Positions 33,499 to 43,317 of a stretch of 64,000 bases of DNA are shown in pieces. Position 1 is the first letter of the stretch; every line of letters starts with the position of its first letter. The translations under genes were made by a program, and so were the position numbers. A model generated the notes under the pieces. It was not told the DNA's origin. It ran no database searches and was given only the letters and a program-made list of their open reading frames with translations. Source of the stretch: an uncultured Actinomycetes bacterium (lineage in GTDB: Bacteria; Actinomycetota; Acidimicrobiia; IMCC26256; DASPTH01); assembly GCA_963721435.1 (NCBI GenBank), contig CAVRJC010000003.1:8183-72182 (forward strand). Direction: 5' to 3'.

Positions 33499-34441
33499 AT
33501 GCGTCGGGGCCTGCTGCTGTTCGTCGCGTGGGCCGTGGGACTGGTGCCCACCGTCCTGCTCCCGGTGGTCGCTGCCGGGAACTGCCGCGCAGGCAGCCAC
33601 TGCTTCGGCCGACGTCGACCCGTACCGCGGGCTCGGCGCGTGGGTCGACTCCTTCGACTACGCACCGCGCCTGCAGTCCAACGGCAACCCGCCGCCGGTC
33701 ACCGCTGCGAGCGTCGACGACATGGCCCGCCTGGGCGTGCGCACGTTGTACGTGCAGGTGGCCAATCCCGACGGCGCGTCACCCGACCAGCTCACCGACG
33801 AAGCGCAGCTGCGCGAGATCCTGACGCACGCGCGGACGTCGGGACTGAAGGTGGTCGCGTGGTACCTGCCGGGGCTCGCCGACGTCGCGCTCGACACGCG
33901 CATGATCAAGACGATCGTCGCGTTCCGCAGCGGCACCACACGCTTCGACACCGTCGCGCTCGACCTCGAGTACACGCAGGGTGAGCCCGACGTCACGGCC
34001 CGGAACGCCAACGCCGTCGAAGTGGCGCGCAACACGCGGAAGCTGCTCGGCACGAAGCGCGCGCTCGGCGCGATCGTGTACCCGGCGGTGCAGACGGAGG
34101 TGCTCAACCCCGTGCTGTGGCCGAACTTCCCGTACAAGAAGCTCGCCGAGTCGATCGACGTGTGGATGCCGATGACGTACTACACGTTCAGGTCCGATCC
34201 CTATCGTGACCCGTTCCGCTACACCGACGAGAGTGTCGCTCGGCTGCGCAAGCGGCTCGACGACGACAACGCGCCCGTGCACCCGATCGGGGGGATCGCC
34301 GACCAGACGTCGCCCGAGGACTACGTCGCGTTCCTGCGGGCGGTGAAGAGCACCAAGGCGATCGGGTACTCGGTGTACGACTTCAACACGACGTCGTCGA
34401 GCGCGTGGACGTACCTGCGCGGCGCCGGCCTTCCCGCGTGA
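33499..34441 (+). CDS. Secreted hypothetical protein, probably glycoside-hydrolase-like TIM barrel (apparent +1 frameshift at GGG 33577-33579)
   Basis: Removing one G joins the signal peptide to ATASADVDPYRGLGAWVD and ORF 33722..34441 (DLEY, WMPMTY, GYSVY). Confidence 0.55.
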
Positions 34442-34483: not shown

Positions 34484-35359
34484 TCAGAGCTCGGCCGACC
34501 AGTCGCGCTGCTCGAGCAGGTCACGGACGTGCGCGAGGAACGCCGACGCGGTGGTGAGGCCGACGACGCGGCCGTCGAACGCGAGCGCGAGCACGCCGAC
34601 GGGATGCACCGCGATCGTGTCCGTGCCGTCGTCGCCGGGCACGACCACCAGGCGCGGCCGCACCGCATCGGTCGCGAGGATCGCGACCTGCGGGATGTTG
34701 AGCACCGGGGCGGAGACGATCGTGCCGAACGGGCCGGGATTGGTGATGGTGAAGGTCCCGCCGGTGACGTCGTCCGGTTGCAGGCGCCGCTCACGCGCTC
34801 GTCGCGCGAGCTCTCCGATCCTCGACGAGAGCGCGCGGAGTCGCAGCGTGTGTGCGTCGTGCACGACGGGGACGACGAGGTCGACGTGGTCGAGGTCGAC
34901 GGCGATGCCGAGGTGGACCGGGTCGTGCGTCGTGATCTCCTCCCCGGAGACGGTCGCGTTGCAGAGAGGGAACTCGTCGAGCGCGTCGATCACCGCGCGG
35001 GCGACGAACGGGAGGTACGAGAGCCCGGCGGGGCGCCGGACGTCATCGACTCGTCGATAGTCGCACTCGACCATCACGTAGGTGTGCGCCGCGGATGCCT
35101 TGGCCTCGATGAGCCGGCGCGCGGTCGTGCGGCGGAGCGCGCTGAACGGCTCGATCGCGTCGCTGGACTGCGACAGCACGTCGTCGCGCGTGACCCGTCC
35201 GCCGCGCCCGGTGCCGTGCAGGCGCGACGGGTCGATGGCGCGGTCGGTCGTGAGACGACGCACCGCAGGAGAGAGGAACGACGGCCCGCCGCGCGTGCGC
35301 TCGGCCCGTTGCCGGGCGGGGAGTGGTGGTGCGGCGGCGAGATCGTCGGTGCCCGTCAT
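34484..35359 (-). CDS. 2-oxoacid dehydrogenase E2-like protein lacking a lipoyl domain and the catalytic DHRxxDG motif
   Basis: PSBD (LSPAVRRL..GTGRGGRVTRDDV), SYLPFVARA, GTFTITNPG, PQVAIL; FDGRVVGL at the active site; RBS GGAGGG. Confidence 0.85.
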   Translation of the reverse strand: MTGTDDLAAAPPLPARQRAERTRGGPSFLSPAVRRLTTDRAIDPSRLHGTGRGGRVTRDDVLSQSSDAIEPFSALRRTTARRLIEAKASAAHTYVMVECDYRRVDDVRRPAGLSYLPFVARAVIDALDEFPLCNATVSGEEITTHDPVHLGIAVDLDHVDLVVPVVHDAHTLRLRALSSRIGELARRARERRLQPDDVTGGTFTITNPGPFGTIVSAPVLNIPQVAILATDAVRPRLVVVPGDDGTDTIAVHPVGVLALAFDGRVVGLTTASAFLAHVRDLLEQRDWSAEL

Positions 35360-35409
35360 TGCCCTCCAGCGTCGCGCGTCGTCGTGGAGCCCACTCGTAT
35401 GCTGACGAC

Positions 35410-37521
35410 GTGTCTCTGTTCGACCGCATCACCGGGCACCACCACGGCGTGGCGCTCGCCGATGCGGTGGCCGACTTCCGACTCGGCTGCGTGTCGCGTG
35501 CGCTCGACGACCGGGAGATCACGCTCCGTCAGCAGAGCCGGGTGTTCTTCCAGATCTCGGGCGCGGGCCACGAGGCGCTGGGGCTCGGGCTCGCCCGCGA
35601 GCTCCGCTCCGGGTACGACTGGTTCTTCCCGTACTACCGCGACCGCGCGTTGGTGCTCGGGCTCGGCGTGTCGGCGCTCGACATCCTGCTGCAGGCGGTC
35701 GGCAGCGCGGACGATCCCGCGTCGGGCGGGCGGCAGATGCCGTGCCACTGGGGCGACCGTGAGCGCAACATCGTCACGCAGAGCAGCCCCACGGGGAGCC
35801 AGTGCCTGCCTGCGGTGGGATGTGCGGAGGCGTCGCGCTACATCGTGCGGCGGACGCTGCCCGGCTGCACCGCCTACGGCGACGAGGTCGTGTACGTCTC
35901 CCTCGGCGAGGGTGCGACGTCGGAAGGCGAGTTCTGGGAGAGCCTCAACACTGCGTGCCGGCTCGGGTTGCCGGTGCTCTACGTCGTCGCCGACAACGGC
36001 TACGCGATCTCCGTCCGGGCCACCGATCAGGCGCCCGCGCCGATCTCGACGCTCGTGCGGGGCTTCACGGGCCTGCACGTCACGAAGCTCGACGGGCGCG
36101 ACTACTTCGACGTGCGCCGCAAGGGCGCGGAGGCGATCCAGCGGGTGCGGGCCGGCCAGGGCCCGGGCCTGATCCACGCGACCGTCACCCGGCCGTACTC
36201 CCACTCACTGTCCGACGACCAGAGCAAGTACCGCACGCACGGTGAGCTCGTCGACGAGCAAGAGCACGATCCGCTGCTCGTGCTCGAGCAGGAGCTGATC
36301 CGCGCCGGCGCGCTCACGCAGGAAGAGGCGAACGAGATCCGCGAGCACGCACGCGCGGAAGTTGCCCAGGCCGCAGTCGACGCGCTCGCCGCGCCGCGAC
36401 CCGACCCTGTGCGCGTGACCGAGCATCTGTACGCGCCGCCCACGGTCACCGAGCTCCCCGCCGACCCGGTGCCGCCGGTGGCCGACGACGGCTCCGAGCC
36501 CGAGCTGGTGACGTTCGGCGAGGCGATCCACCGCACACTGCACGAGGAGATGGCGCGCGACGAGCGCATCGTCGTGTTCGGCGAGGACGTCGCCGACGCC
36601 GACCCGTCCGCCCTCGACGCGGTGCCGGGCAAGGGTGGCGTGTTCGGGATCACGTTCGGCCTGCAGCGCGAGTTCGGGCAGGCCCGCTGCTACAACACGC
36701 CGCTCGCGGAGTCGAACATCGTCGGGCGTGCCGTGGGGCAGGGCATCCGCGGGCTGCGGCCCTCACCGGAGATCCAGTTCTTCGACTACATCTGGCCCGC
36801 GATGCAGCAGCTCCGCTCCGAGGCTGCGACCATCCGCTGGCGGAGCAACGGCGCGTTCTCGAGCCCGATGGTGCTGCGCGTTCCCATCGGCGGGTACCTC
36901 ACAGGCGGGGCGATCTGGCACTCGCAGTGCGGCGAGTCGATCTTCGCGCACTGCCCCGGGTTGCAGATCGTGTTCCCGTCACGCGCGCGCGACGCCGCGG
37001 GCCTGTTGCGCACCGCGTTCCGCACCGACGACCCCGTCCTCTTCCTCGAGCACAAGCACCTGTACCGCCAGGGTCACGCGCGCGACCCGATGCCGCCCGC
37101 CGACTGGCTGCTGCCGTTCGGCCGGGGCGCGCTCGTGACGCAGGGGAGCGCGGTCACCGTCGTCACGTGGGGTGCGACGGTGCGCGAGGCGGTGCTCGCA
37201 GCGCGTGAGGTCGATCCGGATGGCGGCGCGGTCGAGATCATCGACCTGCGCACGATCGTGCCGTGGGACCAGCAGATCGTCGCCGAGTCGGTGGCGCGCA
37301 CCGGCCGTGTGCTGGTGTTGCACGAAGACACGCTCACGTGCGGCTTCGGCGCGGAGATCGCCGCGTGGATCGCCGACGAGTGCTTCGAGGACCTCGACGC
37401 GCCTGTGCTCCGCCTCGCCGCGCTCGACACGCCCGTCGGCTACGAGCCCACCCTCGAAGCCGCCGTGCTCCCACAAGTCGCCGACATCACCCGCGACCTC
37501 CGCCACCTCCTCGCGTACTGA
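35410..37521 (+). CDS. Fused alpha/beta 2-oxoacid dehydrogenase E1 (branched-chain type)
   Basis: GEGATSEG...DNGYAIS ThDP motif, HSLSDD..YR, GEDV, NTPLAE, EIQFFDY, HSQ. Confidence 0.9.
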   Translation: MSLFDRITGHHHGVALADAVADFRLGCVSRALDDREITLRQQSRVFFQISGAGHEALGLGLARELRSGYDWFFPYYRDRALVLGLGVSALDILLQAVGSADDPASGGRQMPCHWGDRERNIVTQSSPTGSQCLPAVGCAEASRYIVRRTLPGCTAYGDEVVYVSLGEGATSEGEFWESLNTACRLGLPVLYVVADNGYAISVRATDQAPAPISTLVRGFTGLHVTKLDGRDYFDVRRKGAEAIQRVRAGQGPGLIHATVTRPYSHSLSDDQSKYRTHGELVDEQEHDPLLVLEQELIRAGALTQEEANEIREHARAEVAQAAVDALAAPRPDPVRVTEHLYAPPTVTELPADPVPPVADDGSEPELVTFGEAIHRTLHEEMARDERIVVFGEDVADADPSALDAVPGKGGVFGITFGLQREFGQARCYNTPLAESNIVGRAVGQGIRGLRPSPEIQFFDYIWPAMQQLRSEAATIRWRSNGAFSSPMVLRVPIGGYLTGGAIWHSQCGESIFAHCPGLQIVFPSRARDAAGLLRTAFRTDDPVLFLEHKHLYRQGHARDPMPPADWLLPFGRGALVTQGSAVTVVTWGATVREAVLAAREVDPDGGAVEIIDLRTIVPWDQQIVAESVARTGRVLVLHEDTLTCGFGAEIAAWIADECFEDLDAPVLRLAALDTPVGYEPTLEAAVLPQVADITRDLRHLLAY

Positions 37522-37711: not shown

Positions 37712-38071
37712 TCATACGAAATGGCGTTGGAGGAGCAGTTCGAGTGCGGCACGTTCTGTCACGTCGAGGTCCACGAACTCGGCGCCCACTCGGAGTATCT
37801 CTTGGCCCGCGCTGATGTTGCGGATCTCACCGTAAAACACGATGCCGTTCGGCTGACCCTCGGCGTTCAGCAAACGAAAGGTGATCCGACAGCCGACAGC
37901 GGCAGCCGGTGGCGCGGCATCGACGAAGTCGAGGCCGACACCCATCAAAGACACGTCGATGAGCCGACACGGCCGCCACGTGCTGTCTGTGCCCGCGATC
38001 GTGTACTCGGCAACCCGACGTGATGGGTCACGTGCGCTGCGACGCCGCCGTCCTTCGATCGATCCCGACAC
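37712..38071 (-). CDS. Stand-alone PilZ-domain protein
   Basis: RRSAR (RxxxR) and DVSLMG (DxSxxG); GGAGG RBS. Confidence 0.8.
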   Translation of the reverse strand: MSGSIEGRRRRSARDPSRRVAEYTIAGTDSTWRPCRLIDVSLMGVGLDFVDAAPPAAAVGCRITFRLLNAEGQPNGIVFYGEIRNISAGQEILRVGAEFVDLDVTERAALELLLQRHFV

Positions 38072-38239: not shown

Positions 38240-38596
38240 GTGGGCCGAACGGAATCACGAAGCGTTGGTCGCCAGCAGATCGAAAGACTTCCGGACGGCT
38301 GGATCGCGCGCTACGCGATCGAGGGGCACCCGGGATGGTCGGAGTGCCGTGTGACCGACCTGTCAGCCCGTGGCGCGCGCCTCGAACTCCACGGAGCGCG
38401 ACCGACTGCAACCGACCGTGTCATCCTCGACTTTCAACTCGGTGACGGTGGAATGCTGGGAGTCCAGTTGTGCGGACAGATCAAGCACACCCGCGCCGAA
38501 CCAGAACCCATAGCAGGGATCGAGTTCGTGCACCTCGACTCTCTGAGAACTGCCCTGGTCGAGTTGCTCACCGAACAACAATCCCGCTTGCCATAA
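38240..38596 (+). CDS. Stand-alone PilZ-domain protein
   Basis: RSVGR and DLSARG; GIEF C-terminal strand; GGAGG RBS. Confidence 0.75.
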   Translation: MGRTESRSVGRQQIERLPDGWIARYAIEGHPGWSECRVTDLSARGARLELHGARPTATDRVILDFQLGDGGMLGVQLCGQIKHTRAEPEPIAGIEFVHLDSLRTALVELLTEQQSRLP

Positions 38597-38974: not shown

Positions 38975-39719
38975 CTAGGTCGCGAGGTGGCGGCCGAAGA
39001 AGTCCCAGATCTTCAGCCAGCCGTCGTTGGCCGCAGCGACGTTGAAGTTCGGGCGGTCGACACTGAAGAACGCGTGCCCGGCGTCCTCGTAGGTGTGGAA
39101 CTCATACTCCTTGCCGTGCTGTTGCAGCGCGCCTTGGATGCGCGCGAGTCTGCTCGGGTGACGGGTTGCCGTCGTTGGCGCCGAAGAGGCCGAGAAGTGG
39201 GCAAGACAGCGAGGCGGTGAGCTCGACGACCGCGGGCGGCGACTCGGGCGTGACGTCCTCGGGCGCAGGCGCGACCCGTCCGCCGTAGCAGTCGACGGCC
39301 GCGTCGAACGGGAGGCTGCACGCGACGAGGTACGATTGGCGTCCGCCGGAGCAATACCCGATCACGCCGACCTTGCCGTTCGCGGTGGTCATCGACCGCA
39401 GGAACGCGCTGGCGCCGGCGACATCGCCGATGCACTGCTCGTCGGGGACGCCGCCGCCTTCGCGTGTGAGCCGCGCCGCCTCGCCGGGATCGCCGTCGGG
39501 CAACGCTCGGTAGTGCAGGTTCGGGCAGAGCGCGTTGTAGCCGCGCGTCGCGAACGTGCGTGTGATCTCCTTCGTCGCCGCGTCGTACCCGGGCATGTGG
39601 TGGATCACGACGACGCCCGGGAACGGGCCCGGTCCGAGTGGCCGCGCGAGGTAGCCGGTGATCTCGTCGCTGCCGTGCCCGCGCAGCCGGATCGTCTCCG
39701 CCATCATCCCGTCGTACAT
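38975..39719 (-). CDS. Dienelactone hydrolase family protein (apparent -1 frameshift near 39148)
   Basis: GVVVIHH, GYCSGG, GANDGNP; the C-terminus YEDAGHAFF lies in another frame. Confidence 0.88.
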
Positions 39720-39893
39720 GCGGCCTCCTCTTCGACCGTGGGAGCGTACGGCAAGCTCCCCGACCGTGGCGACTGACTCGGAGAGGCCGGCGGTGGGGTG
39801 GTTCGGGAGTGTCGTGATCGACGCGGTCGATCCGCAGGCGCTGCCCGCCAGGAATCCGAGGCGCGCCGCTCGCACGATTTACGATCCTGCACC

Positions 39894-40664
39894 ATGAAGA
39901 TCGCGGTGAGTGTGAAGCACGTGCCGGCCGGGCGCCTCGGTATCGCGCCCGGCTCGTTGCGCCTGGATCGCAGCGGCCCCGGTGAGCTCAACGACGTCGA
40001 CCGGAACGCGATCGAAGCGGCGCTGAACCTGAAGGGTGACGGGGGCCACGAAGTGGTCATCGTGTCGATGGGCCCGGAGTCGGCGACCGAGTCGTTGCGG
40101 ACGGCGCTGGCGATGGGGGCGGATCGTGCGGTCCTGGTGAGTGACCCGGCGGTCGCGGGGTCGGATCTGGTGGCGACGAGCAAGGTGCTCGCGGCGGTGC
40201 TCGCACGTGAGGGCGCGGATCTCGTGTTGTTCGGTCAGCAGACGAGTGACGGCGGTGGTGCGGTGCTGTGGGCCGCGGTCGCCGATCGGTTGCGCATCCC
40301 GTTCGTGTCGCAGGCCGCGGAGCTCACGGTCGACGGCGAGACGGTGCGCGTCGTGCGGGAGACCGAGAACGGCTACGACGAGATCGAAGCACGGGTGCCG
40401 GCGCTCGTCGCGGTGAGTGACGCGATCAACGAGCCGCGCTACACGTCGTTGAAGGGGATGATGGGCGCCAAGAAGAAGCCGCTCGAGGTGTTGACGCTCG
40501 CGGATCTCGGGCTCGATGCGGGTGAGGCGGGTGACGCGGGATCGGGAACGCGTGTGCTCGGGCTCTCGGCCCCACCGACTCGGGCGAACTCGGTGACGGT
40601 CGAGGACGACGGCAACGCGGCTCGAGCGATCTTCGACTTCCTGGTGGAGCAGCAGCTCGTATGA
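39894..40664 (+). CDS. etfB: Electron transfer flavoprotein beta subunit
   Basis: MKIAVSVKHVP, AIEAAL, ALAMGAD, NEPRY. Confidence 0.93.
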   Translation: MKIAVSVKHVPAGRLGIAPGSLRLDRSGPGELNDVDRNAIEAALNLKGDGGHEVVIVSMGPESATESLRTALAMGADRAVLVSDPAVAGSDLVATSKVLAAVLAREGADLVLFGQQTSDGGGAVLWAAVADRLRIPFVSQAAELTVDGETVRVVRETENGYDEIEARVPALVAVSDAINEPRYTSLKGMMGAKKKPLEVLTLADLGLDAGEAGDAGSGTRVLGLSAPPTRANSVTVEDDGNAARAIFDFLVEQQLV

Positions 40665-41632
40665 AGATCCTCGTCTTCCTCGAGCATCACGGCAGTGAGC
40701 TGACCAAGGGATCGCTCGGTGTCCTCGCGAAGGCTGTCGCGCTGGGCGGCGGCGATGTCGCCGCGGTGCTCGTCGGTGGTGACGACGTCGCGGCACTCGC
40801 GGGTGAGGCGGGGAAGTTCGGTGCCGCGTCGGTCTACGTCGCCACCGACGACGCGTTGAGTCCGCCGCTGCCGCAACCGCGGGTCGACGTGCTCGATGCG
40901 TTGGTCCGTGCCCAGGGCTTCGACACCGTGATGTTCTCCAACTCCGTGCTCGCGGCCGATGTCGCCGCCGGCCTGGCGGCGCGGCTCGAGGCCGGTCTCA
41001 ACTGGGATCTCATCGACCTCGTGGAGCAGGACGGCGAGCTCGTCGGGAAGCGCCCCGCGCTCCAGGACTCCGTGCTCGTCGACGTCGCGTGGCGCTCGCC
41101 GCAGCGGCTCGCGCTGTTCCGCACCGGTTCGTTCGACGCCGTGAGCACTGGCGGCGACGCGCGGGTCGAGACGCTCGGCGTCGAGCTGCAGGACCACTCG
41201 ACCGGCGCGACGATCGTGAGCCAGGAGCTCGCGGCGAGCGAGGGCCCGTCGATCGAGGATGCGGAGGTGATCGTCGCCGGCGGTATCGGCCTCGGCTCCG
41301 CGGAGAACTTCTCCCTCGCCGAGACCCTCGCCGAGATCCTGGGCGGCGCGGTCGGCGCGACGCGCGCGGTCGTGTACAAGGGCTGGTACCCGCACGCGGC
41401 GCAGGTCGGTCAGACCGGCAAGACGGTCACGCCGAAGCTGTACATCGCGTTGGGGATCTCGGGCGCGGTGCAACACAAGGTCGGCATGCAGAACTCGAAG
41501 GTGATCGTCGCGATCAACAAGGACCCGAACGCGCCGATCTTCGAGTTCAGCGACCTCGCGGTCGTCGGCGACGTGCATACGATCGTGCCCGAACTCGTCG
41601 AGCTCCTCCGCGCCCGCAAGAGCTCGTCGTGA
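40661..41632 (+). CDS. etfA: Electron transfer flavoprotein alpha subunit
   Basis: QVGQTGK, GISGAVQHKVGM, AINKDPNAPIF. Confidence 0.95.
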   Translation: MKILVFLEHHGSELTKGSLGVLAKAVALGGGDVAAVLVGGDDVAALAGEAGKFGAASVYVATDDALSPPLPQPRVDVLDALVRAQGFDTVMFSNSVLAADVAAGLAARLEAGLNWDLIDLVEQDGELVGKRPALQDSVLVDVAWRSPQRLALFRTGSFDAVSTGGDARVETLGVELQDHSTGATIVSQELAASEGPSIEDAEVIVAGGIGLGSAENFSLAETLAEILGGAVGATRAVVYKGWYPHAAQVGQTGKTVTPKLYIALGISGAVQHKVGMQNSKVIVAINKDPNAPIFEFSDLAVVGDVHTIVPELVELLRARKSSS

Positions 41633-43317
41633 CCCGCCCGGCCAACTACCCGCCGCCGTTCACCGCCGGCGAGTTCGTCGCCGAGCCCACCGATCCTGTC
41701 GACGAGCGGATCGAGGTCGGTGTCCTCGTGGTCGGTGCCGGGCCCGCGGGCCTCGCGTGCGCGATCCGCTTCGGGCAGCTCCTCGAGGAGAACCCCGAGG
41801 TCGCCGAACAACTCGGCGAGGTGCCCCTGGCCGTCGTCGAGAAGGGGAAGCAGCCGGGTTCGCACCTCCTGTCGGGCGCGATCGTCAACCCCCGGTCGCT
41901 GCGCACGCTCCTCGGTGACGACGCACTCGCCGACATGCCGAGCTACGGACCGGTCCCGAAGGAGTCCGTGTACCTCCTCACCGGCACGCGTGCCGTTCCG
42001 ATCCCGCCGCCGCCGACCATGCGGAACCACGGCAACCTGATCGTCTCGTTGTCGGACCTCGGCCGCTGGCTCGCCGCGCGCGCCGAGGACGGCGGGGCGA
42101 TGATCCTGCCCGAGACCGCGGCGCAGGCCCTGCTGGTGGACGACGGGCGCGTCGTCGGCGTGCGCACCGGCGACAAGGGTCGCGGGAGCGACGGCGAGGC
42201 GCTCGGCAACTTCGAGCCGGGGTCCGACATCGTCGCCCGGGTGACGGTGCTGGCCGAGGGCACCCAGGGCCATCTCACCGGCGTGGCGCTCGACCAGCTC
42301 GATCTCCGCGGCGACGACCCGCAGGTGTGGGAGCTCGGGGTCAAGGAGGTGTGGAAGGTCCCGCAGCCGCTCGACCGCATCATCCACACCATGGGGTGGC
42401 CGCTGCGCCCGCAGGCGAGGTACCGCGAGTTCGGCGGCTCGTTCATCTACCCCATGGGCGACGACATGCTGAGCATCGGCATGGTCGTCGGCCTCGACTA
42501 CCGCGACCCCACGCTGTCGCCGCACGACCTCCTGCAGCAGCTGAAGACCCATCCGAAGATCCGCCCGCTGCTCGACGGTGGGGAGCGCCTCGAGTGGGGG
42601 GCGAAGACCATCCCGGGCGGGGGACACCACGCGTTGCCGAAGCGCTTGTACGCGCCGGGGCTCCTGCTCTCCGGTGACGGCGCGGGCATGGTCAACATCC
42701 CCACGCTCAAGGGCGTGCACTACGCGATCGAGGCCGGGCGACTCGCGGCCGAGACCGCATTCGCCGCGCTCGCGCGCGCCGACGAATCTCCGACCGCGCT
42801 CGCGGCGTACGACGACGCGGTGCGATCCGGCTTCATCGGGAAGGACCTCTACGAGGTGCGTGACATGCGCGCCGCGTTCGGTCGCGGCTTCGTGGTCGGT
42901 GCGGCGTGCGCCGGCGCGATGTCACTCTCGAAGGGTCGCATCAACATCGGTCGTATGCGGAACGTTGCCGACGACGCGCACGAGTTGCTACCGGTCGATC
43001 ACACCGCGCAGCACCTCACGCACGACGGGACGCTCACCTTCGACCGGCTCTCGTCGGTGTTCGCAGCGGGGAACAAGACGCGCGACGACCAACCGAATCA
43101 CATCCGGATCCAGCAGCGCGTCCCCACCGACGTCGCGCAGCTGTGGGCGCACCTCTGCCCGGCGCAGGTCTACTCGGTCGGCGCTGCAGGCGACGACGGT
43201 CTCGTGGCCGTCGACATCGAGCCGTCGAATTGCGTGCAGTGTGGCGCGATCTCCGCGAAGGGCGGGCGCCTGACGCCACCCGAAGGTGGCTCCGGCCCCG
43301 AGTACTTGCGGAGCTGA
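41629..43317 (+). CDS. ETF:quinone oxidoreductase (FixC-FixX fusion type)
   Basis: GAGPAG, SHLLSGA, LGVKEVW, GDGAG...LKGVHYA, CPAQVY, NCVQCG, PPEGGSGP. Confidence 0.88.
   Translation: MTRPANYPPPFTAGEFVAEPTDPVDERIEVGVLVVGAGPAGLACAIRFGQLLEENPEVAEQLGEVPLAVVEKGKQPGSHLLSGAIVNPRSLRTLLGDDALADMPSYGPVPKESVYLLTGTRAVPIPPPPTMRNHGNLIVSLSDLGRWLAARAEDGGAMILPETAAQALLVDDGRVVGVRTGDKGRGSDGEALGNFEPGSDIVARVTVLAEGTQGHLTGVALDQLDLRGDDPQVWELGVKEVWKVPQPLDRIIHTMGWPLRPQARYREFGGSFIYPMGDDMLSIGMVVGLDYRDPTLSPHDLLQQLKTHPKIRPLLDGGERLEWGAKTIPGGGHHALPKRLYAPGLLLSGDGAGMVNIPTLKGVHYAIEAGRLAAETAFAALARADESPTALAAYDDAVRSGFIGKDLYEVRDMRAAFGRGFVVGAACAGAMSLSKGRINIGRMRNVADDAHELLPVDHTAQHLTHDGTLTFDRLSSVFAAGNKTRDDQPNHIRIQQRVPTDVAQLWAHLCPAQVYSVGAAGDDGLVAVDIEPSNCVQCGAISAKGGRLTPPEGGSGPEYLRS

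Follow-up and report, generated by a model that had tools for sequence, protein, structure and literature searches.

A lipoyl-less E2-like protein with a degenerate active site, encoded beside a fused 2-oxoacid dehydrogenase E1 in the Acidimicrobiia: a candidate docking subunit that would borrow lipoyl arms

The E2 core of a 2-oxoacid dehydrogenase complex is assumed to unite a lipoyl arm, a docking site and a transferase. A stretch of 64,000 nucleotides from an uncultured bacterium of the class Acidimicrobiia (GenBank assembly GCA_963721435.1, contig CAVRJC010000003.1, positions 8,183 to 72,182; hereafter the window) carries a gene pair that raises the question of what such a protein does when its lipoyl domain is missing and its active site is degenerate. 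The pair consists of an E2-like gene, here termed E2L, and a divergently oriented gene for a fused E1 (Table 1). A preliminary description of this locus, made from the letters of the DNA, regarded E2L as a catalytically dead E2 and proposed that it might be a scaffold resembling the eukaryotic E3-binding protein (E3BP), a core-inserting adaptor or inhibitor, or else that the E1 might use another acceptor. The analysis presented here favors, with a probability of about 0.5, the reading that E2L is an E1-docking trimer that borrows lipoyl arms in the style of OdhA and has at most residual transferase activity.

The architecture of E2L is reduced at its N-terminal side. The open frame above its ATG comprises 23 codons at most (314 amino acids in all), and, because of this limit and of the E1 start located 50 bp away, no space for a lipoyl domain exists on the 5′ side of the gene. 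The ATG is directly preceded by GGAGGG, and the N-terminus, MTGTDD, agrees with those of homologues. No match to Biotin_lipoyl (PF00364) was obtained for E2L with Pfam, and none to a lipoyl domain was obtained with a local hidden Markov model (HMM). The earlier claim that the E2 homologue begins at the binding domain, with a ribosome-binding site and no upstream room, is thereby borne out. E2L's peripheral subunit-binding domain (PSBD; Pfam E3_binding) contains all of the residues that are invariant in the family (S30, P31, R34, G49, G51, G54, R55, T57, R58, and D60), and the catalytic domain, which belongs to Pfam 2-oxoacid_dh, retains GGTFTITNPG, R108, T206, N207, and D262. E2L shares the PSBD, the CAT fold, the GGTFTITNPG sequence and the type of C-terminus described below with canonical DlaT/AceF-type E2 proteins, including that of its own genome, Mycobacterium tuberculosis DlaT (9y6t) and Corynebacterium glutamicum AceF (6zzl), but it lacks the lipoyl domain and the Ala/Pro linker, and has GxxxGL in place of HxxxDG. 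Compared with all NCBIfam E2 equivalogs, every score was far under the cut-off, the best being 191.6 bits for TIGR02927 (cut-off, 423.45). E2L is not a canonical E2, as it lacks two defining features, the lipoyl domain and the DHRxxDG motif.

The second of these features was examined by aligning E2L with HMMER to C. glutamicum AceF (6zzl, 6zzi) and M. tuberculosis DlaT. The alignment is gapless through the active site, so that G263 falls at the position of the catalytic His and G267-L268 at that of the Asp-Gly pair (His645 and Asp649 of the C. glutamicum E2, CgE2p), in agreement with the earlier statement that both the His and the following Asp are replaced without an indel. The loop is encoded by GAC GGC CGC GTC GTC GGC CTC, which implies two base changes each for His to Gly (CAC to GGC) and Gly to Leu (GGC to CTC) and one for Asp to Gly (GAC to GGC); the suggestion of multi-base substitutions therefore holds for the first two replacements and fails for the third. 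In the AlphaFold2 model of E2L, the confidence score (pLDDT) is 83.4 overall and 92–98 around the degenerate loop, and the best Foldseek matches of this model are M. tuberculosis DlaT (9y6t) and C. glutamicum AceF (6zzl/6zzi), with TMt values of 0.77–0.83.

The C-terminus bears on the oligomeric state. In actinobacterial pyruvate dehydrogenase E2 (E2p), a three-residue insertion termed PCI turns the C-terminal helix inward and limits the protein to trimers, and this insertion has been reported for Acidimicrobiia as well (bioRxiv 10.1101/2020.07.24.212647). W287 of E2L aligns with Phe669 of C. glutamicum AceF (6zzi), with Trp instead of Phe. The C-terminal sequence of E2L, EQRDWSAEL, is matched by EQRDWEAELD in the lipoylated DlaT-like E2 of the same genome, and the E2 of the branched-chain 2-oxoacid dehydrogenase (BCKDH) type found in this genome ends otherwise.

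The partner gene shows no comparable degeneration in its motifs. The true start of the fused E1 is the GTG at 35410 and not the head of the open reading frame at 35323, as both the length and the N-terminus are then equal to those of orthologues. The nearest solved structures are the Thermus thermophilus and human BCKDH E1 and Pyrobaculum aerophilum E1beta. Alignments to the first two demonstrate retention of the GEG...N-G-Y motif for thiamine diphosphate and Mg, the His of SHSLSDD, the beta-subunit Glu (PLAES) and the His of WHSQ, which agrees with the preliminary account of an E1 that lies 50 bp away with its cofactor and His motifs kept. The protein is assigned to the BCKDH/pyruvate dehydrogenase (PDH) heterotetramer class, with the alpha and beta parts fused. 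No substrate could be assigned from NCBIfam, in which all matches were far under the cut-offs, or from the gene neighborhoods, which vary among clades beyond the pair itself. The intergenic region common to the two genes contains a block, ...CATACGAGTGGGCTCC...GCGCGCGACGCTGGA..., in the alignment of the window with close relatives, and this block may be a common promoter or operator.

A first explanation to be weighed is that E2L is a decaying remnant, or an artefact of assembly or sequencing. The distribution of the pair bears on this reading. E1 orthologues (68–81% identity) were found in 83 of the 251 genomes of the order, and an E2-like gene stood beside E1 in 66 of the 71 cases in which the upstream region was fetched; of the five E1 genes without such a neighbor, two are truncated by contig ends. 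The divergent pair with a fused E1 was present in every context inspected (L011, L012, L050, L051, L052, L053, and five genomes of other families), and the DGRxxGL motif is common to the nearest relatives in independent assemblies (P0001, 84% identity; P0014, 93%). A further relative, P0007, is labelled Acidimicrobiia by NCBI. A protein search with E2L returned thousands of E2 relatives, and the top matches include many lipoyl-less proteins of ~290 amino acids composed of a PSBD and a catalytic domain. The loci reached by this single-protein search were set aside, since they are not the module: they are OdhA fusions and canonical E2 operons with separate E1a and E1b genes and a lipoylated E2 (Pseudomonas; L013, Thermoleophilia; L014, Actinomycetes). 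The E1/E2L pair is a conserved module of the order (class Acidimicrobiia) and not a case of strain decay, and both checks proposed with the preliminary description, on homologues and on relaxed selection, came out in favor of a maintained gene.

Selection was assessed from pairwise estimates of the ratio of nonsynonymous to synonymous substitution (dN/dS; NG86), which are approximate. Between the window and its relatives, dN/dS was 0.21–0.28 for E2L, 0.08–0.10 for E1 and 0.05–0.13 for atpD, and E1 is 90–93% identical where E2L is 64–72% identical. E2L of the clades with an intact motif gave 0.28–0.31, and the comparison with these clades revealed no extra relaxation of E2L in the degenerate clade. 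The ratio dN(E2L)/dN(E1) is 3.2–4.2 in the degenerate clade versus 1.7–2.4 in the intact clades, mostly because E1 is slower there and partly because only the alpha half of E1 was used at some loci. Because DGRxxGL is present in both the window and L049, their divergence post-dates the loss of the motif; for this pair, dN/dS is 0.26 for E2L (bootstrap 95% interval, 0.17–0.39) and 0.22 for the catalytic domain alone. Therefore, E2L is functional and has been under purifying selection after motif loss. The decay reading can appeal to the dN of E2L, 3–4 times that of E1, and to the accessory nature of the module, which other genomes from the same genus and family lack (in the window's own family, ~30 further genomes have neither gene of the pair). 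It is nevertheless very improbable and largely refuted, given the upper bound of 0.39, the recurrence of the motif in independent assemblies, the intact PSBD and conserved residues, and a frame that is intact in the window, L049, L050, L051, and L012; a pseudogene was rejected on the dN/dS values and the conserved residues. In the closest relative, L011 (ERZ25039488 contig_23565), E1, E2L and atpG are each broken into several frames; because atpG is affected as well, these breaks look more like indel errors of long reads than like pseudogenes, and this frameshift-ridden locus was used piecewise only.

The family to which E2L belongs displays a recurrent erosion of the E1 partner. E2L-type partners nest among the E2 and E2-like sequences of Acidimicrobiia in the trees; the partner is derived from an actinobacterial DlaT/AceF-type E2, and its lipoyl domain has been lost in most lineages. 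Three architectures were found. Most partners consist of a PSBD and a catalytic domain. In one family (L115 in G100 and L118 in G405), the same fused E1 stands beside an E2 with a lipoyl domain (...VSTDKVD...) and a decayed PSBD, which is the converse of the reduction in the window. The third type retains only the catalytic domain (L042 in G040, L091, L092, L094, L110, L111, and L112), and its PSBD is reduced to a stub such as GFVPPRxRFG, with the LPWRxR motif kept. The full consensus of this basic motif, (V)LP[WA]RxRxxR, is seen only in lipoyl-less partners and is kept in the PSBD-less L042, L091, L092, L094, L110, and L112; for L111, the pattern search settled on another site, but the motif is present on reading. 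The corresponding LPARQRAERTR of E2L is a candidate partner-binding peptide, and conserved docking may reside in the LPWRxR motif rather than in the PSBD.

The active site varies in a similar manner. Among 90 lipoyl-less rows, HRDG is intact in 55, the His is kept and the Asp-Gly lost in 17, and the His is lost (to G, A, C, S, or R) in 18, versus HRDG in every lipoylated E2 row (12 of 12 in this tree and 37 of 37 in the first tree). A tree built with the motif columns excluded requires at least 10 changes at the His and 10 at the Asp-Gly, together with a minimum of 4 in the PSBD and 2 in the lipoyl domain. The clade of the window (SH-aLRT 99) has the Asp-Gly in no member, and its His position is occupied by H, G (in two separate events), or C. 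This clade keeps nearly all family-invariant residues, the changes being clustered at positions 263–270, with others at G160, Q222, and P237.

These data must be set against a second explanation, in which E2L is still the working acyltransferase of the module, the His-to-Gly and Asp-to-Gly changes lower or retune its activity (e.g., for a bulkier acyl group), and lipoyl arms are supplied in trans. In Escherichia coli 2-oxoglutarate dehydrogenase E2 (E2o), H375G retains 13% and D379A 9.5% of complex activity, Asp374 weighs as much as His375, and the His has been argued not to be the acid-base catalyst; moreover, the isolated catalytic domain functions with a free lipoyl domain (PMC5986005). The same positions are substituted in E2L, so that partial activity and the use of a non-covalent lipoyl domain by the core are possible, with the difference that the E. 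coli variants each carry one engineered change in a lipoylated 24-mer, and E2L combines two natural ones in a paralogue without a lipoyl domain; if the two E. coli factors are combined, ~1% activity is predicted. This explanation also draws on the catalytic-domain dN/dS of 0.22, on a replacement sequence, xL-T-T-A, that is conserved within the window's sub-clade, and on a column scan in which Arg108, Thr/Ser206, Asn207, and Asp262 are unchanged in 18 of 18 His-less members (Asp262 corresponds to Asp374 of E. coli E2o, and Arg108 aligns with Arg480 of CgE2p, which forms a salt bridge to the 3′-phosphate of CoA). Against it, a His and an Asp-Gly that are invariant in the lipoylated E2s sampled have each been lost at least 10 times here, the His to five different residues, and some members lack Arg264 or have AARA or RSGP loops, a pattern of lapsed selection and not of a single adaptive retuning. 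A working transferase is the main rival reading and is entertained tentatively. Accordingly, the description of E2L as catalytically dead is upheld as to the loss of the His and the Asp-Gly, and goes too far as to death itself, which is unproven in view of the invariant Asp262, Thr206, and Arg108 and of the residual activities in E. coli.

Without a lipoyl arm of its own, E2L would need a supply elsewhere. As stated in the preliminary description, the window contains neither an E3 gene nor a lipoyl carrier. In the remainder of the genome, four E2-type catalytic domains were found, including that of E2L, together with lpd followed directly by a lipoylated DlaT/AceF-like E2, an operon for a BCKDH-type complex with its own lipoylated E2, an OdhA/Kgd-like fusion and AceE (Table 1). 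The genome can therefore provide lipoyl arms, an E3 and a functioning transferase core in trans, from two lipoylated E2s and Lpd. The earlier idea that E1 uses a non-lipoyl acceptor finds no backing: nothing found suggests it, and the two lipoylated E2s and Lpd are at hand. The other PF00364 matches in the genome are biotin carboxylases or the two lipoylated E2s only. An open reading frame of 92 amino acids (38.9 bits to Biotin_lipoyl) was considered as a stand-alone lipoyl carrier and rejected, because its hairpin has no lysine. A second gene resembling that for lipoamide dehydrogenase scores 383.8 bits, less than the TIGR01350 cut-off; it contains one in-frame TGA and adjoins a gene for the alpha subunit of a biotin-dependent acyl-CoA carboxylase.

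Taken together, E2L is probably mainly a docking subunit that borrows the lipoyl arms of the housekeeping complex. In this proposed scheme, E2L would form the usual CAT-fold trimer, limited in size by its PCI-type C-terminus, and the trimer would dock E1 dimers via the intact PSBD, the N-terminal LP[WA]RxR peptide or both, resembling the way in which the E2 trimer organizes E1 dimers in OdhA. E1 would decarboxylate a 2-oxoacid and load the acyl group in trans onto the lipoyl arms of the housekeeping DlaT/AceF-like E2, and Lpd would then reoxidize these arms. The core of the housekeeping E2 would carry out most of the acyl transfer to CoA; alternatively, the Asp262/Thr206/Arg108 site of E2L would do so slowly. 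It is proposed that, because of this redundancy of transferases, selection on the His and the Asp-Gly lapsed while the residues for fold, docking and ligand binding remained constrained.

The known system that the module most resembles is the OdhA/AceF arrangement. The E2 domain of OdhA carries no lipoyl domains, and OdhA is presumed to make use of the lipoyl arms of AceF (PMC8740704); its hexamer relies on trimeric E2 and dimeric E1 (PMC10415282). Common to OdhA/Kgd and the module are an E2-type catalytic domain that lacks a lipoyl domain and is tied to its own E1, a presumed reliance on the lipoyl arms of a housekeeping PCI-type E2p and on a common Lpd, and an E2 trimer and E1 dimer as assembly units, which for E2L are predicted; both an OdhA-like fusion and a lipoylated E2 of the PCI type occur in the genome of the window. 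The differences are that E1 and E2L are separate divergent genes and not one polypeptide fused to a 2-oxoglutarate dehydrogenase E1 (E1o), that the E1 is of the fused alpha-beta heterotetramer class and not E1o, that E2L keeps a PSBD and adds the N-terminal basic motif, and that the E2 domain of OdhA is catalytic, whereas the His and Asp-Gly of the window's protein are lost.

Several points weigh against this docking reading. Approximately 60% of the family retain HRDG, and catalysis probably still matters in most lineages; the invariance of Arg108, Thr206, and Asp262 would fit ongoing catalysis as well as a structural role. E1 docking and trans-lipoylation are proposed steps, as is heterologous acyl transfer. 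The dN/dS values are NG86 pairwise estimates from a genome of 70% GC (the window, ~70%), with dS of up to ~1; partner architectures were scored by local HMMs and sequence reading, and the trees, obtained by quick LG+G4 searches, are limited and give minimum counts of change. The genome assembly (4.07 Mb, 12 contigs) is 90.6% complete, so that the gene inventory may be incomplete.

Two other roles compatible with a weakened active site were considered. The first is that of a strict E3BP-type adaptor, in which the PSBD recruits E3 (Lpd) and not E1, and the core co-assembles with the housekeeping E2. The core of E2L is that of a His-less E2 paralogue accompanied by an intact PSBD, as in eukaryotic E3BP (protein X; 6h60, PMC10156792), for which a structural role corresponds to that suggested for E2L. 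The catalytic domain is ~50% identical to that of the genome's own DlaT-like E2 and the two share the EQRDW.AEL end, so that mixed trimers are conceivable. However, E3BP arose in eukaryotes, carries a lipoyl domain, binds E3 and takes a place in or inside an icosahedral (60-mer) E2 core, whereas E2L is lipoyl-less, is linked to an E1 gene and not to lpd, has a trimer-limiting C-terminus and originated independently inside the E2s of Acidimicrobiia, so that the two do not share a common descent as non-catalytic paralogues. In addition, PSBD-less members keep the gene, and E3 binding through the PSBD cannot therefore be the conserved function. A strict adaptor of this type is improbable, and the likeness to E3BP drawn in the preliminary description stands as an analogy only. 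The second role is that of a negative regulator or decoy, which would sequester E1 or cap housekeeping E2 trimers and thereby throttle flux. A weakened paralogue with its binding elements could in principle be dominant-negative, but no regulatory context is present, and the co-inheritance with E1 as a divergent unit, with an intact active site in most lineages, points to a cooperating subunit; a decoy is highly unlikely. Of the adaptor and inhibitor roles suggested earlier, a mainly structural or adaptor role is thus plausible and an inhibitory one lacks a context.

A bolder extension of the docking reading is offered with considerable reserve. E2L may be a bacterial E2-derived pseudoenzyme, or nearly so, that connects a third E1, itself horizontally mobile, to the supercomplex that PDH forms with 2-oxoglutarate dehydrogenase (ODH) in actinobacteria. 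It would dock the fused E1 through the PSBD or LPWRxR and associate or form mixed trimers with the DlaT-type E2, so that one lipoyl pool, one transferase core and one E3 would serve three decarboxylases, and the repeated, independent disappearance of the lipoyl domain, PSBD and His within the family would represent successive stages of this take-over.

The genomic site of the module is consistent with mobility or loss. In L011, L012, L050, and L051, the pair adjoins the atp operon, and in these loci and the window the order is the atp operon, a hypothetical gene without a Pfam match, and then E2L and E1; the hypothetical gene is syntenic in all four relatives. There, glpX comes after the pair (within ~2 kb in L050), and the window has PilZ genes instead, its glpX being on another contig and 99% identical to the L050 copy. 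In L125, from the same genus (G296:C78:4500-12400), and in L126 and L127, from the same family, the order is atpC, the hypothetical gene and glpX, the last two adjoining each other, and the site is empty. Given these occupied and empty sites between the hypothetical gene and glpX, the module behaves as a cassette of ~3 kb, which appears to have been either acquired in a sub-lineage or lost elsewhere. All of the members found in the atp context belong to the clade without the Asp-Gly.

Other genes lie further downstream of E1 in the window. Directly 3′ of E1 are two small, divergent, stand-alone PilZ genes. At a distance of ~2.4 kb from E1, etfB, etfA and the gene for electron transfer flavoprotein (ETF):quinone oxidoreductase follow in a row, preceded by a gene of the dienelactone-hydrolase family. 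The three ETF-related genes would be a putative electron route for acyl-CoA dehydrogenases, and their association with E1 is not kept in relatives.

Table 1. Positions of the E1/E2L module, of its surroundings in the window and of related genes elsewhere in the genome (contigs C4 to C12)
Feature	Position	Strand	Basis or remark
Conserved hypothetical gene, 239 aa (289–311 aa as called in relatives)	33722..34441	+	Between atpC and module
E2-like gene (E2L) for a lipoyl-less protein of 291 aa with basic N-terminal motif, PSBD and CAT-fold catalytic domain	34484..35359	-	
W287 of E2L	34499..34501	-	PCI-equivalent residue by alignment to 6zzi; invariant in family
Acyltransferase-type catalytic domain of E2L, residues 67-284	34508..35161	-	PF00198, 1.5e-53; column scans
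Degenerate catalytic loop D262-G263-R264-V-V-G267-L268	34556..34576	-	Canonical D-H-R-x-x-D-G
PSBD of E2L, intact, residues 28-62	35174..35278	-	PF02817, 7.5e-12
N-terminal basic motif of E2L, LPARQRAERTR	35291..35323	-	Family consensus (V)LP[WA]RxRxxR
Divergent intergenic region, 50 bp	35360..35409	.	Block conserved in close relatives (GCGCGCGAC...TGGA)
Fused E1 alpha-beta 2-oxoacid dehydrogenase, 703 aa	35410..37521	+	Pfam
E1_dh domain of E1	35491-36408	+	Pfam
Transket_pyr domain of E1	36511-37068	+	Pfam
Transketolase_C domain of E1	37123-37488	+	Pfam
PilZ gene	37712-38071	-	Pfam, 6.7e-09
PilZ gene	38240-38596	+	Pfam, 1.2e-05
Dienelactone-hydrolase-family gene	39102-39875	-	
etfB, etfA, ETF:quinone oxidoreductase	39891-43317	+	
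lpd, then directly lipoylated DlaT/AceF-like E2	C4:145999-148883		
Lipoylated DlaT/AceF-like E2 of the preceding row	C4:147438-148883		
Rejected lipoyl-carrier candidate, 92 aa	C4:331971-332150	+	Biotin_lipoyl-like, 38.9 bits
OdhA/Kgd-like fusion	C4:370616		
glpX	C6:125458-126411		
Second lipoamide-dehydrogenase-like gene	C6:139278-140624	+	383.8 bits
AceE	C7		
Operon of separate E1a, E1b and lipoylated E2 (BCKDH-type)	C12:9327-12461		

No description of a module composed of a fused E1 and a lipoyl-less E2 was found in the literature searched, and genes of the E2L type are now named as ordinary E2 acetyl- or succinyltransferases. Actinobacteria broke the rule of a unitary E2 once, with OdhA and the trimeric E2p, and the module would be a second, independent case that is much more variable. 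In a single order, partners that variously lack the lipoyl domain, the PSBD, or the His and Asp-Gly accompany one and the same E1, with the partner gene under purifying selection throughout, which provides a natural series of the E2 functions that can be outsourced to a housekeeping complex. If E2L proves to be active without its His, the view derived from E. coli E2o that the essential base is not the His would be supported. The module also offers testable candidates for a bacterial counterpart of the E3BP idea, that of a non-catalytic E2 paralogue, and for a new docking peptide.

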